Below are positions 1 to 5,287 of a DNA stretch of 5,287 nucleotides, piece by piece. Position 1 is the stretch's first letter; the number at the start of each line of letters is the position of its first letter. The translations under genes and the position numbers were made by a program. The notes below the pieces were generated by a model. That model worked only from the letters and a program-made list of their open reading frames with translations. It ran no database searches and was not told the origin of the DNA. Origin of the DNA: a virus (Duplodnaviria; Heunggongvirae; Uroviricota; Caudoviricetes); IMG/VR virus record IMGVR_UViG_2693429774_000006. One strand, written 5' to 3'.

Positions 1-43
1 AACTCCGCAATGTGATTAAGTCCATTCAGGCGTTCACCGGGGC

Positions 44-244
44 TTAATGGAACAGTCGCCGCAGTGCCTTCAATAGCCATTTGTTCCCCCGTTTTTTCGT
101 AGATAGTTCTGCCAGCAATTCATCTTGTGAACGGCACGGATGCCAGCGTTTACCATCCTCCCCCATGATCCAGCCGTGACCGTAATGCATTGCCGGGCTT
201 TGTTTAACCAGCAGCGATGCAAATGATGGTTCTTTCGTCAGCAT
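44..244 (-). CDS. Small hypothetical phage early protein, immediately downstream of the cII-like gene on the minus strand
   Basis: ORF in the supplied track (44..274). I prefer the internal ATG at 244 because it is preceded by GAGGTG about 4 nt upstream, whereas 274 is a GTG start overlapping the cII-like gene by 23 nt. Same strand and position as the early-operon genes that follow cII in 186-type phages. No recognisable domain; product unknown. Confidence 0.45.
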   Translation of the reverse strand: MLTKEPSFASLLVKQSPAMHYGHGWIMGEDGKRWHPCRSQDELLAELSTKKRGNKWLLKALRRLFH

Positions 245-251
245 AAGCACC

Positions 252-761
252 TCACAGCAAACCAAATGAAGCACCGAGGCCAGTCACGGTATCAACTGCA
301 CTCGCCATCGCAGGATTAGCCTGTAAACGGGCCTGCAATGAAACAGCCGCCAGCGCCATCAGTCGTGTTACAGAATTAATGCTGCTGATAGCATCACGAC
401 GACCGGCACAGGTTTTTACATCGCCAGACACCGCACCTGCAGCAACACGCCCGATCTCTGCGGTTGCACTCATGACGTAATGTGGCAGTTTCTCTTTTGC
501 CACCTCATTAATCGGAACACATGGCAGACAATGAATCTGTGCCAGAAAACCGTCTACCAACGTTGAATCTTCAGTCAGATCGGTAAGCAACCAGATTTCT
601 GGTGCGGTGAGCTGATGCGGTTGATCTGGATTGAGTTTGTTTCGCAGTGTCTGAACATTCATTCCTGCACGTTCTGCCAGCTTTGCCATATTGTGACGTA
701 GTGCAAAAGCTCTACAGGCTTCATCAAAATGCGGATGTTTGGAAATCTTGTAATCAAACAT
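252..761 (-). CDS. cII: Phage CII-like transcriptional regulator (186 CII / CP76-type)
   Basis: 169-aa ORF with start preceded by AGGGGG about 6 nt upstream. Length matches 186 CII as I recall it (169 aa), and it sits immediately downstream of the Cox/Apl-like gene in a 186-type early operon. Family assignment is from memory, not a search. Confidence 0.75.
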   Translation of the reverse strand: MFDYKISKHPHFDEACRAFALRHNMAKLAERAGMNVQTLRNKLNPDQPHQLTAPEIWLLTDLTEDSTLVDGFLAQIHCLPCVPINEVAKEKLPHYVMSATAEIGRVAAGAVSGDVKTCAGRRDAISSINSVTRLMALAAVSLQARLQANPAMASAVDTVTGLGASFGLL

Positions 762-793
762 GCTGCCCCCTTAGAAAGTTCTCATAATTGAAC

Positions 794-1042
794 TTAGTCA
801 CCAACGATGACATTAAAGTTGAAATTGGATTGGCCCATGTTTTTCCTGACTTGTTCCTTTTTGTACTCAAGGTAACGTATACATACTCTGTCTTTCGATT
901 TTTCTTTTCTTTCCAAGAATTTAGCGAGTTTACCATTATGAATCATTTGATATACCGAACCGCGAGAGCGGCCTTCCCATTCCGCGAACTCAGCTGGTGT
1001 CGCCATCACTTTTGGTACACGAATTGAAATGTCGTTGCTCAT
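794..1042 (-). CDS. Cox/Apl-like excisionase and early-promoter regulator (small HTH protein)
   Basis: 82-aa ORF. The segment VMATPAEFAEWEGRSRGSVYQMIHNGKLA resembles the P2 Cox N-terminal HTH region as I remember it (…AIPYQEFAKLIGKSTGAVRRMIDKGKLP…). It is divergently transcribed from the CI-like repressor and is the first gene of the rightward-type operon, as apl is in 186 and cox in P2. Confidence 0.7.
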   Translation of the reverse strand: MSNDISIRVPKVMATPAEFAEWEGRSRGSVYQMIHNGKLAKFLERKEKSKDRVCIRYLEYKKEQVRKNMGQSNFNFNVIVGD

Positions 1043-1161
1043 AGTGCAGTATCTCTCGATTAAGGTTTGGTTTACGTCGTTTTATCTTGTTTTATTTGAT
1101 TCAATATTTGATACACCAAGATACTACGATCCAATATTTGATACGTCAACAGGATTAAAAA
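1043..1161. promoter_or_regulatory. Divergent lysis/lysogeny switch region (pR/pL-type promoters and operators) between the Cox/Apl-like and CI-like genes
   Basis: 119-bp AT-rich intergenic region between divergent genes. It contains the 13-bp direct repeat CAATATTTGATAC at 1102..1114 and 1132..1144, and ATTTGAT also at 1094..1100. AGGA lies about 7 nt upstream of the cI ATG. Exact -35/-10 elements could not be assigned confidently by eye. Confidence 0.5.
1102..1144. repeat. Two copies of the 13-bp direct repeat CAATATTTGATAC, 30 bp centre to centre, in the switch region; candidate operator sites
   Basis: Exact match seen directly in the sequence at 1102..1114 and 1132..1144. Confidence 0.6.
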
Positions 1162-1794
1162 ATGATACAAGTAAAAGCTGGCGAGAATACAGGGGGAAGA
1201 GAGGCTATCCATAGGCTAATGGCAGCCTATGATTTCAAGTCCAGACAGCAACTTTGCGATCACTTGGGCGCATCAAAAAGCACTATGGCAAACAGATACT
1301 TAAGAGATAGTTTTCCTGCAGAATGGGTGATTCAGTGCGCTTTGGAAACAGGAGTTTCTTTACTGTGGCTAACTACCGGACAGGGCGATCCAGGTTCAAA
1401 CATTGACCCTAAAAAAAATATCAATTCCGTGAACTCTAGCAAAGTTAAACCTCTTTCGGAGCTTGTATCTCCTGAAATTGACAAGGCAACTCTCAACGGA
1501 GGTTTGCTGATCGATGCTGGAAAAGCAATCATTGATAGCAGCATACTCCCCTCAGACTCAAGCAACCTGCTGCTGGTGACTACTTCTGGTGATTCTTATT
1601 TAATAGATCGCAACCAAACACCACCAGTAAATGGTACGTGGTTAGTGGACATCGACGGGATAAAAAGCATTGTAAAATTGACACGACTCCCGGGAAACAG
1701 ATTAGTAGTGCATCAGGATGATTCATCGTTTGAGTGCGAACTGGATGACATTGAGGTAATAGGCCGCGCACTGAAAATCATTAAGAGCCTTTGA
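1162..1794 (+). CDS. cI: CI-type prophage repressor (186 CI-like N-terminal HTH domain, with an S24/LexA-like signature in the C-terminal part)
   Basis: 210-aa ORF. The N-terminal segment …RYLRDSFPAEWVIQCALETGVSLLWLTTGQG resembles the 186 CI HTH domain as I recall it. The C-terminal part contains GDSY (Ser145) and VKLTRLPGN (Lys172), resembling the Ser/Lys motifs of LexA and UmuD. Its stop TGA (1792..1794) lies 1 nt before the integrase ATG. Confidence 0.85.
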   Translation: MIQVKAGENTGGREAIHRLMAAYDFKSRQQLCDHLGASKSTMANRYLRDSFPAEWVIQCALETGVSLLWLTTGQGDPGSNIDPKKNINSVNSSKVKPLSELVSPEIDKATLNGGLLIDAGKAIIDSSILPSDSSNLLLVTTSGDSYLIDRNQTPPVNGTWLVDIDGIKSIVKLTRLPGNRLVVHQDDSSFECELDDIEVIGRALKIIKSL

Positions 1795-1795
1795 T

Positions 1796-2809
1796 ATGAC
1801 CATCAGAAAACAGCCGAACGGAAAGTGGTTATGTGAATGCTACCCAAACGGGCGAGATGGCAAACGCGTACGCAAACAATTTGCGACGAAAGGCGAAGCC
1901 ATTGCGTTTGAGAATTTCACCATGGACGAGGTAAACAAGAAACCTTGGCTGGGAGAAAAGGAAGATCGGCGACACCTATCAGAATTAATTGAGCTGTGGT
2001 ATTCCCTGTATGGTCAAACACTCGCAGACCCCAAGCGACTCATGGCGAAACTTGGAATTATCTGTAATGGTCTGGGCGATCCCATCGCTTCAGAGCTGAC
2101 TGCCGGTGACTTTACGAAATACCGCGAAGCACGGCTAAAAGGTGAAGTGCGAAATGAAGATGGCACGCTGATGTCGCCCGTTAAGCCCCGCACGGTAAAC
2201 CTTGAACAGCGCAATCTATCATCTGTGTTCGGTACATTAAAAAAACTAGGACACTGGTCAGCACCAAACCCGCTGGCAGGACTTCCGACCTTCAAAATTG
2301 CCGAAGGTGAGCTGGCTTTTCTTTCCACGGACGAAATCAAGCGCCTGTTGGCGGCATGTGCTGAATCTCAAAGCCCTAGCTTACTAATGATTGCAAAAAT
2401 ATGTCTGGCTACTGGCGCACGGTGGAGTGAAGCCGAAAATCTGCAGGGCCATCAAATATCGAAATACCGAATTACTTATACAAAAACAAAAGGCAAGAAA
2501 AACCGTACTGTGCCGATATCTCAGGATCTGTATGATGAACTCCCCAAAAACAGAGGAAAGTTATTCACGCCATGCAGAAAAGCCTTTGAGCGGGCAGTAA
2601 AGCGGGCCGGTATTGACCTACCGGAGGGCCAATGCACCCACGTGCTTCGCCATACATTCGCCAGTCACTTTATGATGAACGGCGGAAACATACTGGTACT
2701 GCGTGATATTTTGGGTCATGCCGATATAAAAATGACCATGATTTACGCCCACTTTTCGCCCGATCACCTTGAAGACGCGGTGACTAAAAATCCTCTTTAT
2801 AATTTGTAG
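1796..2809 (+). CDS. int: P2/186-family tyrosine integrase (site-specific recombinase)
   Basis: 337-aa ORF, the same length as P2 Int as I recall it. N-terminus MTIRKQPNGKWLCECYPNGRDGKRVRKQFATKGEAIAFE parallels P2 Int MAIKKLDDGRYEVDIRPTGRNGKRIRRKFDKKSEAVAFE. C-terminal catalytic signature is present: ATGARWSEA, HVLRHTFASHF (HxxR) and MIYAHF (Tyr nucleophile). Tightly coupled downstream of cI. Confidence 0.92.
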   Translation: MTIRKQPNGKWLCECYPNGRDGKRVRKQFATKGEAIAFENFTMDEVNKKPWLGEKEDRRHLSELIELWYSLYGQTLADPKRLMAKLGIICNGLGDPIASELTAGDFTKYREARLKGEVRNEDGTLMSPVKPRTVNLEQRNLSSVFGTLKKLGHWSAPNPLAGLPTFKIAEGELAFLSTDEIKRLLAACAESQSPSLLMIAKICLATGARWSEAENLQGHQISKYRITYTKTKGKKNRTVPISQDLYDELPKNRGKLFTPCRKAFERAVKRAGIDLPEGQCTHVLRHTFASHFMMNGGNILVLRDILGHADIKMTMIYAHFSPDHLEDAVTKNPLYNL

Positions 2810-2821
2810 TGGAGACCTATT

Positions 2822-4342
2822 GTGATTCAAAAATTAGATATTCAATCTGATGCGGTTGCAAAGTTAAGAATGGATGCTATTCGTTCAGAAATCCAAGGTT
2901 ATTCCCCTGATTTATTTATCGAATTCTGTATGCAATATAACTTACAAAAATTTGAAGATAATATCCACATGTTACGACACATGCCTTGGATTGTTAATTT
3001 ATGTCTAAAGTGGTCTGCGTCAGTAACTGGCAAGAATAAAAAATTCAAAATCCTCGATAAAAATCAAGCAATAAAACTCTTCCAAAAAACTTATGAAACC
3101 TTGAACATTATTCCTATCGGTCTTGAGAGGAAGAATGGCATGCATTTCTTCATTAGAAATAATCTATACCAACAAGGAATCTACCAGAAAATTGACGCTC
3201 TAAACACAATTAGCAGACAAGTCTTTCTATTTTCAGAACTTGAAAAAAACCATAAAATAAAGAAAAGTTTTTTTACTATCACGAATGTATCTATCGAAGA
3301 CTTTCTTAAGCTATCTTACATATTAATAACTCACATAACAGAAGAGCATCCCGTGAGAAAAATGAATGTAGATACATTTACTATATTATTTGACATCATT
3401 CCTAGAAATACCATTGAGAAATTTCTTGATGCAATATCAATAAATTACAATGAACTATCTACATTTTGCAAATCAAAAACCTATGATAAACCTTTGCTTG
3501 AATACTACTCATCATCACCTTTTCTTGAAAAACCATTAATAAAAAAAGGTTCAGAGTATTTTCAGATACACACACAACTGACTTCAACAAGCATACAGAC
3601 GTTCATATATGATCTTTTAAGAAGAACTGATGCCGAGAAGTTCATGGATAGCTTTGGAAATGTATTTGAAAATGCACTGGAATTAATACTAAAAGAAAGC
3701 GAAATTGATTTTCATAACGAAAAATACCTTAAAGAACGACTACCTAAAGATAATAAAGTAGTTGATTATTTCATTCCACATACTGAGGCAAATATTTTCA
3801 TTGATGCTAAAGGCGTTGAGATACACCAAAAAGGCATGGTAACATTACGCCCTGAGGATATTGCAGGAAAAATAAAGAAATCGGTATTAAAAGCAATCGA
3901 ACAATCTCACGAAGTTAATCGAGAAATATACTCTAATGAGCGAATAATAGCTCCATTCAGGGCTAACTCATATATCATTTGCATTACATATAAAAACCTT
4001 TTCTTAGGCAATGGTAGTATCCTAGCTAATACTTATGCTAAAGATGAGATGAATAAGATATATGACAAGTTTAAACATAACTATCATATCCCTACAGAGA
4101 ATATTTTTTGTCTATCATTTGAAGAGTTTGAATATCTCATTGCATCATGCAAAAGGTTTAAAATTCCGCCTCATGAAGTCTTGCAATCTGCAGTTGAAAA
4201 GAACAAAAAACCATCAAGTGCTGCTTTCCTATTTTCCCACCATATAGAGGACTATTTTGATAGAGTAGTCAATTCAGTCATAGTCAATGAGGCAGGCATT
4301 AAAATGGTAGATTCTATTATCAATAAATTAAAGCCTGAATAA
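2822..4342 (+). CDS. Large hypothetical cargo protein (506 aa) between the integrase and the attachment site; candidate defence or lysogenic-conversion protein with a putative PD-(D/E)xK-like nuclease motif
   Basis: Uninterrupted 1521-nt ORF with GTG start at 2822 and GGAG at 2811..2814; it begins 12 nt after the integrase stop. Strongly AT-rich: hand counts of sampled 60-nt lines give about 23-35% G+C, against about 62% in a sampled integrase line. The AT richness makes long chance ORFs unlikely, since random AT-rich sequence is stop-codon-rich. Motif E283 (FENALELIL), D315 (VVDYFIP) and D328-A-K330 (IFIDAKG) has PD-(D/E)xK-like spacing. No Walker A motif and no family I recognise. Confidence 0.85.
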   Translation: MIQKLDIQSDAVAKLRMDAIRSEIQGYSPDLFIEFCMQYNLQKFEDNIHMLRHMPWIVNLCLKWSASVTGKNKKFKILDKNQAIKLFQKTYETLNIIPIGLERKNGMHFFIRNNLYQQGIYQKIDALNTISRQVFLFSELEKNHKIKKSFFTITNVSIEDFLKLSYILITHITEEHPVRKMNVDTFTILFDIIPRNTIEKFLDAISINYNELSTFCKSKTYDKPLLEYYSSSPFLEKPLIKKGSEYFQIHTQLTSTSIQTFIYDLLRRTDAEKFMDSFGNVFENALELILKESEIDFHNEKYLKERLPKDNKVVDYFIPHTEANIFIDAKGVEIHQKGMVTLRPEDIAGKIKKSVLKAIEQSHEVNREIYSNERIIAPFRANSYIICITYKNLFLGNGSILANTYAKDEMNKIYDKFKHNYHIPTENIFCLSFEEFEYLIASCKRFKIPPHEVLQSAVEKNKKPSSAAFLFSHHIEDYFDRVVNSVIVNEAGIKMVDSIINKLKPE

Positions 4343-4474
4343 GTCTCCCAAGCAAAACCAGTGGCGGCATTTTGGCGGCAGAGCATTAAAAATGCGTAAA
4401 ACAGACAAACACAAAATAATACTAACACACTGATTTTAAACATAAGTTCATGTTTTTGTTATAGTAAAAATGGT

Positions 4475-4519
4475 ATGTAGGAATTTCGGACGCGGGTTCA
4501 ACTCCCGCCAGCTCCACCA
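4475..4519 (+). other. Partial copy of the 3-prime end of tmRNA (ssrA), about 45 nt ending in CCA; att core repeat at the prophage/island junction
   Basis: ATGTAGGAATTTCGGACGCGGGTTCAACTCCCGCCAGCTCCACCA matches the 3-prime terminus (T-arm and acceptor stem) of enterobacterial ssrA as I recall it. Sequence upstream of 4475 has no resemblance to the 5-prime part of ssrA, so this is a fragment, not a full gene. Confidence 0.8.
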
Positions 4520-4554
4520 ATTTTTGATATATTGAAGTTCAGTGAAGTCTATCA

Positions 4555-4587
4555 AGCCCGCATGGAACCAGCCTTGCGGGCTTTTTT
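4555..4587 (+). terminator. Rho-independent terminator-like hairpin with T-run, downstream of the ssrA 3-prime fragment
   Basis: AGCCCGCA (4555..4562) pairs perfectly with TGCGGGCT (4575..4582) across a 12-nt loop, followed by TTTTTT (4582..4587). Confidence 0.6.
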
Positions 4588-4641
4588 ACGTCTATAGTAG
4601 TCTACCGAGAATTGCTAGAATCTACTCGTTATGGCACCCTT

Positions 4642-4688
4642 TTTGGGACCCAACACAAAGGGTCCAAAACATGAGGGTCCCAAACATG
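4642..4688. repeat. 10-bp perfect inverted repeat (TTTGGGACCC at 4642..4651 and GGGTCCCAAA at 4675..4684) plus a 15-bp tandem imperfect repeat (4659..4673 and 4674..4688) overlapping the P4-type integrase start
   Basis: Seen directly in the sequence. The tandem units AGGGTCCAAAACATG and AGGGTCCCAAACATG differ at one position and each ends in an in-frame ATG. Confidence 0.6.
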
Positions 4689-5258
4689 GCAAAAATCGCT
4701 AAGAAGCTCACTGACACTGAAATCAAAAGCACCAAACCTGCCGAGAAAGAGGTTAACCTTTTTGACGGCGATGGTTTGCTCCTGCGAATCGCCCCCTTAG
4801 CGAAGGGAGGAAAGAAAAATTGGTATTTCAGATATGCAGTGCCTGTGACCAAAAAGCGAACTAAGGTGAGCTTAGGAACCTATCCTCACCTTACACTTGC
4901 GAAGGCACGAGCTTTACGTGATGAGTACTTGTCGTTGCTTGCAAATGGTATAGACCCACAAGTTCATAACACCCACAAAGCCAATGCCCTTAAGGATGCA
5001 ACGGAACATACATTTCAAGCAGTAGCCAAGAAGTGGCTTGATGAGAAAGTCAAAACGTCAGGCATCTCCCAGGATCATGCTAACGACATCTGGCGAAGCC
5101 TAGAGAGAAATATCTTTCCAACGTTGGGTGATACCCCCATTAAGGAGATTCGCCCTAAAATGCTTAAACAGCATTTAGACCCCATAGAAAAACGAGGTGT
5201 CCTTGAAACACTTCGCCGCGTCATTGATCCTACCCACGTAATATGGACACAGGCCTAA
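4686..5258 (+). CDS. P4-type (CP4-57 IntA-like) integrase, N-terminal arm-type DNA-binding and SAM-like region only; apparently truncated
   Basis: Translation from the ATG at 4686 (MAKIAKKLTDTEIKSTKPAEKEVNLFDGDGLLLRIAP…WYFRYAVPVTKKRTKVSLGTYP…DIWRSLERNIFP…) matches the conserved N-terminal pattern of P4-family integrases as I recall them. Start is preceded by GAGGG; an alternative in-frame ATG lies at 4671. The frame ends at a stop at 5256..5258 after about 190 codons, and the other two forward frames also hit stops nearby. The longer 4542 start in the track runs across the terminator and is rejected. Confidence 0.7.
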   Translation: MAKIAKKLTDTEIKSTKPAEKEVNLFDGDGLLLRIAPLAKGGKKNWYFRYAVPVTKKRTKVSLGTYPHLTLAKARALRDEYLSLLANGIDPQVHNTHKANALKDATEHTFQAVAKKWLDEKVKTSGISQDHANDIWRSLERNIFPTLGDTPIKEIRPKMLKQHLDPIEKRGVLETLRRVIDPTHVIWTQA

Positions 5259-5287
5259 GCGAGGTTCTTGTTTTCAAATTGTTCCGG

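Follow-up and report, generated by a model that had tools for sequence, protein, structure and literature searches.

The 190-codon open reading frame near the end of the window, by which we mean the whole analysed stretch of 5,287 nucleotides, is very probably the 5' portion of a 409-aa P4/CP4-57-type tyrosine integrase gene that is interrupted by a copy of IS3 after nucleotide 539. In the assembled sequence, the IS3 copy adjoins the integrase gene directly after this nucleotide, with its right inverted repeat towards the 5' part of the gene. Translation would enter IS3 for 10 codons and then stop; the product thus retains the arm-binding domain together with the greater part of the core-binding domain, and is without the catalytic domain. 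Of the element, 63 nt are visible, and the copy is presumably complete. If the event is a simple insertion, the far side would carry the IS3 left end (...GGGTAAGATCA), then a repeated CAT and then the integrase sequence ATCCCGCCTGAATG....

IS-interrupted island integrases are commonplace, and the event is of an already known kind. For annotation, this means an integrase pseudogene that IS3 interrupts at the end of a contig, and neither a novel short arm-binding protein nor a frameshift; more generally, when an ORF stops within a few dozen bases of a contig end, an IS terminus is the first thing to look for. Beyond the correct annotation, the case matters little.

The break point and the IS3 end

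The reading frame runs on the plus strand from the ATG at 4686 to the TAA at 5256..5258, as the initial annotation had noted, and encodes 190 residues. Its start codon is common to all homologues (MAKIAKKL...). A longer ORF of 238 aa from the GTG at 4542 was rejected as a mechanical artefact of ORF listing; it overlaps the ssrA terminator. The 190-aa product is the Escherichia coli protein CTX31658.1 / WP_220540589.1 in GenBank, and a look-up with the exact protein identified the window as a complete draft contig, CYDV01000055.1 (5,287 bp), of the E. coli assembly GCA_001284905.2.

A megablast search against 5,426 complete E. coli genomes found a collinear strain, FJ_Ec_21 (NZ_CP143627.1). Positions 1..5224 of the window align with it without gaps and with 18 mismatches, none of them after 3264; in a base-by-base alignment the two are identical from 3265 to 5224. 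At 5224|5225 the similarity is lost, and from 5225 on there is none in any frame. The integrase gene of FJ_Ec_21 is intact (1230 nt, 409 aa, WP_001384082.1, 'integrase domain-containing protein', at 6287..7516 of the extracted locus L003), and its nucleotides 1-539 are 100% identical to 4686..5224 of the window. The identity extends over another 1,421 nt upstream of the gene; in contrast to the window, where IS3 follows nucleotide 539, the gene of FJ_Ec_21 continues uninterrupted into its catalytic domain.

The frame is thus composed of two parts. The native 5' part of the island integrase gene (4686..5224, plus strand) comprises codons 1-179 and two bases of codon 180; it covers the arm-binding domain and, to about 70%, the central, core-binding domain. 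The remainder (5225..5258, plus strand) is encoded by IS3; it completes codon 180 with its third base, adds ten foreign codons (DPTHVIWTQA) and ends in the TAA stop. Codon 180 still reads Ile although its third base already belongs to IS3, and the native sequence ends with this residue, the first 180 of the 190 residues being identical to the intact protein. The segment ...RGVLETLRRV, which had been described as conserved-looking, is indeed native integrase sequence, and the DPTHVIWTQA tail is not integrase.

The last 63 nt of the window (5225..5287, minus strand, TGATCCTACCCACGTAATATGG...) are the outermost part of the right end (IRR) of IS3, counted from the terminal TG. They are identical at 63 of 63 positions to 7350..7412 of the locus L002 from E. 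coli YZ_2_2, starting at the first base of the element (TGATCC...); this reference element is 1258 bp long and is annotated as 'IS3-like element IS3 family transposase'. The window tail therefore begins, at its 5'-TG, with a terminal inverted repeat matching the end of IS3. The terminus at the junction is the right inverted repeat, while the left one reads TGATCTTACCCAGCAATAGTGG; in this orientation the transposase genes would run antisense to the integrase. The same stretch matches 1560 plasmid records under IS3 annotations, and the element is found on E. coli chromosomes and plasmids. Unlike these copies, the window contains only the terminal 63 nt, with orfA/orfB, the left end and the target duplication lying off the contig; complete IS3 copies were seen in other genomes only. 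A full IS3 is about 1258 bp long, produces its transposase from orfA/orfB by programmed frameshift, and duplicates 3 bp of its target. The CAT at 5222..5224 is the presumed 3-bp target site, as judged from the near junction, the far one being off the contig. Insertion targeted to inverted repeats is known for some IS3-family elements, and we considered a target that resembles the IS3 inverted repeat; by eye about 6 of 13 positions agree, which is not convincing.

The exact position of the break bears on how the gene was truncated. A frameshift or nonsense mutation in a continuous integrase gene, with the catalytic domain following downstream in another frame, had been suggested earlier, and the early stop together with stops in all three forward frames near the end would agree with it; the other two forward frames do each contain stops within the last 140 bases of the window, as reported. 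However, neither a mismatch nor an indel separates the gene from the intact allele up to 5224, similarity then ends in every frame, and the downstream 63 nt are IS3 at 63 of 63 positions. It is the IS3 end at 5224|5225 that cuts the frame, and, if the IS3 copy is complete, about 1.26 kb of IS3 occupies the place where a catalytic domain just downstream was envisaged. Because the break coincides with the terminal TG of IS3, it bears the signature of transposition and not of a frameshift or nonsense mutation, and we regard a point-mutation pseudogene as next to impossible.

An assembler could also have joined an IS3 end to the integrase by mistake, in which case the gene would be intact in the real genome. 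The junction is that of the assembled sequence and lies 63 nt from the contig end, where assemblies are least reliable. Nevertheless, the break coincides with base 1 of the IS3 inverted repeat (TGATCC...), which does not look like a mis-join at a shared k-mer. No long word is common to the native sequence (GTCAT|ATCCCGCC) and the terminus of IS3, and equivalent IS3 junctions in this gene occur in finished genomes. A chimera is thus very improbable. In place of the sequencing error that had been considered, the end of the window is better explained by a break of the assembly, as the sequence is a whole contig that ends in a repeat. Short-read assemblies typically stop inside multi-copy repeats. 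Among the 5,426 complete E. coli genomes, those with any match to this IS3 end have it at a median of 3 places per genome; the contig stops 63 nt into IS3 because a multi-copy repeat is not passable by a short-read assembler. The opposite, left end of the contig (1..60) lies inside the prophage described below, within or upstream of its fil gene, and this break may be at a second repeat, for example another P2-like prophage in the genome.

Domains of the shortened product

The domain content of the 190-aa product agrees with an interrupted integrase. In Pfam searches, Arm-DNA-bind_3 (PF13356) matches residues 8-95 (E 5.9e-24; 84.4 bits against a cut-off of 27), and Phage_int_M (PF22022) matches residues 110-180 (E 1.2e-17). 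The second match covers positions 1-69 of the 96 in the profile, compared with positions 1-93 in the intact allele, so the central domain of the product is incomplete. The catalytic Phage_integrase domain (PF00589), which carries the R...HxxR...H...Y residues, was not found by Pfam in the 190-aa product. In the intact allele, the arm-binding, central and catalytic domains span residues 8-95, 110-204 and 219-383, respectively, and about 229 residues of this 409-aa protein are missing from the product. The NCBIfam model NF007246 gives the same picture, matching residues 1-180 at profile positions 1-175 of 413 with 177.5 bits, below its cut-off of 434 bits, while the intact allele scores 445.1 bits. 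The window gene is therefore a truncated derivative of a member of the P4/CP4-57-type integrase family, not a functional member. Both the family assignment and the truncation after about 190 codons had been proposed in the initial annotation, and both are borne out.

A known relative is IntA, the integrase of the cryptic prophage CP4-57 in E. coli K-12 (b2622, 413 aa). Like the integrase studied here, IntA lies directly downstream of ssrA; it shares the three-domain architecture, and it is 49% identical to the intact allele over 401 residues. At this level of identity it represents a separate integrase lineage, and, unlike the window gene, it is intact. An alignment of the intact allele with IntA places its tyrosine-recombinase motifs at VRPGE (252-256), HGMRS (342-346), ALAHS (366-370) and AAYNR (377-381). 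The catalytic residues R253, H342, R345, H369 and Y379 are all past residue 180. Tyrosine recombinases need these residues for catalysis. With every catalytic motif lying past the break, the window product would be unable to catalyse recombination; as predicted from its sequence, the 190-aa protein cannot cut or rejoin DNA.

Alternatively, selection might maintain the short form as a conserved arm-binding protein in its own right, which could serve, for instance, to regulate or to inhibit excision. Its arm-binding domain is complete, and databases contain many N-terminal fragments of this integrase with a length of 172-199 aa. Against this, a single contig carries the exact protein in a collection of about 15 billion proteins, the IS3 inverted repeat supplies its last 10 residues, and the central domain is cut at position 69 of the 96-position profile. 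The other short forms end at varied positions, being produced by IS3 in either orientation, by IS1, by internal deletions or by contig ends. Moreover, of the 1281 complete E. coli genomes in which the gene or a relative is present, 1188 (93%) have at least 80% of its length, and among these carriers the intact form is the norm. Selection for such a stand-alone protein is therefore hardly credible, and we retain the interrupted integrase as the reading of this gene.

Other breaks in the gene and the fate of its 3' half

The 3' half of the gene may have been lost through an IS3-associated deletion or rearrangement, or it may survive beyond IS3, as in a simple insertion; we lean slightly towards loss. 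In four complete genomes IS3 adjoins the 5' part of the same integrase gene without a target duplication, and the 3' part is absent. These junctions lie at nucleotide 539 in O68:H12 97.3 (L004), 540 in GCA_946401875.2 (L017), 1138 in YZ_2_2 (L002) and 1012 in PigCaeca_2 (L005); their structure points to IS3-associated deletions or rearrangements. They are events independent of the one in the window, whose exact IS3 junction is present in 0 of the 5,426 complete E. coli genomes. In O68:H12 97.3 and GCA_946401875.2, in contrast to the window, it is the left end of IS3 that faces the gene, and the integrase alleles of these two strains are about 95.5% identical to that of the window.

The protein collection offers a further view of the 3' half. 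The predicted reciprocal junction would yield ORFs of 194 or 139 aa. The exact C-terminal ORFs of 194, 139 and 131 aa are in the collection, with none under GCA_001284905.2 among the accessions listed (at most four per protein), and the neighbouring 518-aa recombinase of FJ_Ec_21 is likewise present with no accession of this assembly among those listed. For comparison, CTX accessions of GCA_001284905.2 are listed for two control proteins encoded in the window. Contigs with the 194-aa ORF include none from this assembly among the 10 of 20 listed, and a homologue search with residues 181-409 returned cluster representatives only, none of them assignable to it. This absence of accessions hints, weakly, at a loss of the 3' half; another start call or a difference of one residue would hide the fragment just as well. 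Draft contigs do exist in which the left end of IS3 adjoins 3' parts of the gene, at nucleotides 480 and 604.

In other E. coli strains, several breaks, with IS junctions of independent origin among them, fall within nucleotides 510-546 of the integrase gene, which correspond to 5195..5231 of the window. They comprise IS3 in the opposite orientation at nucleotides 539 and 540, IS1 at nucleotides 529 and about 534, and a 37-bp deletion of nucleotides 510-546; on the extracted loci the nearby breaks are at 5060|5061 (L004), 3540|3541 (L017), 25|26 (L012), about 3533 (L016) and 3901|3902 (L008). These cases came partly from searches that were seeded on this position or on the fragment length, and the sampling is position-biased. 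For this reason we judged the claim of a statistically supported hotspot to be unsafe, and a genuine fragile spot or insertion hotspot at about nucleotides 510-546 seems unlikely to us. If there were one, a target preference could explain why the gene is repeatedly truncated just behind the arm-binding and partial core-binding region, as could, more speculatively, selection for fixing the island in place while the arm-binding fragment is kept.

The ssrA site and the older island

Upstream of the integrase gene, a 45-nt fragment of the 3' end of ssrA, the tmRNA gene, lies at 4475..4519 (plus strand); it ends in CCA and repeats the final 45 nt of intact ssrA without a difference. Rfam gives a partial tmRNA match here that, at 30.5 bits, does not reach the gathering score of 47, and ARAGORN found no complete tmRNA gene in the window. 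The fragment lies 166 nt upstream of the integrase start codon, which places the integrase adjacent to tDNA; integrases of this type lie beside the 3' end of the tRNA or tmRNA gene that they target. The fragment is followed by a hairpin and T-run terminator at 4554..4587 (plus strand), with a terminator-like site at 4570..4582, and about 100 nt separate this terminator from the integrase gene. The same region follows intact ssrA in YZ_2_2. A partial Rfam match to IsrM at 4444..4587 (plus strand), which overlies both the ssrA fragment and the terminator, does not represent an IsrM gene; with 44.8 bits it is far below the gathering score of 376, and it matches only the ends of the model and skips most of the internal positions.

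The DNA before the fragment (1..4474) is the end of a P2/186-like prophage. According to Pfam it carries fil, cII, an 82-aa gene, cI and the prophage's own intact integrase (1796..2809). The GapS1 cargo gene (2822..4342) comes next. FJ_Ec_21 has the same setting of prophage, GapS1 gene, ssrA fragment and integrase; its locus starts with smpB and intact ssrA, continues with the P2/186-like prophage, which measures about 33 kb, and ends with the 45-nt ssrA fragment and the integrase. In strains without the prophage, the integrase directly follows intact ssrA, and the intervening sequence is identical, including the terminator hairpin. On the basis of this order with and without the prophage, we assign the truncated integrase to an older inner island directly downstream of ssrA, a place where many E. 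coli strains have this island; the prophage inserted into ssrA later. The fragment at 4475..4519 is the att repeat, the boundary at which the P2/186-like prophage ends and the older island begins.

The arrangement fits the rule by which islands regenerate the tDNA, displace a fragment of it and can stack in tandem (Islander criteria, PMC4383910), and it may be such an array. Here the outer element is the prophage with its integrase at 1796..2809 and the fragment at 4475..4519; the inner island has the truncated integrase, and its distal ssrA fragment is off the contig. The initial annotation had proposed an island remnant that cannot excise on its own. The absence of the catalytic half agrees with this, and the island has probably lost self-excision unless a helper recombinase is supplied; a related integrase could act in trans. 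It is plausible that the inner island is a decaying remnant, the rest of it being off the contig.

The collinear strain shows what can follow an intact copy of this integrase. In FJ_Ec_21, the inner island (7799..11134 of L003) carries a gene for a 518-aa serine recombinase and two ParB/RepB-like genes right after the integrase, where the window has IS3. This cargo is unlike that of CP4-57 in K-12.

Two minor observations concern the prophage. No Pfam model matches the 506-aa ORF at 2822..4342 (plus strand), which separates the prophage integrase from the att site; the NCBIfam model NF047931 'antiphage_GapS1' does, with 428.5 bits, above its cut-off of 320. The GAPS1 system consists of one PD-(D/E)xK protein and acts against phages when a phage capsid protein triggers it (bioRxiv 10.1101/2023.03.28.534373). 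In the window, GapS1 is a cargo gene of the P2/186-like prophage. Furthermore, 17 of the 18 mismatches to FJ_Ec_21 lie in the part of the prophage with fil and cII, at 12..483 and 898; their placement suggests a mosaic exchange in the prophage early region.
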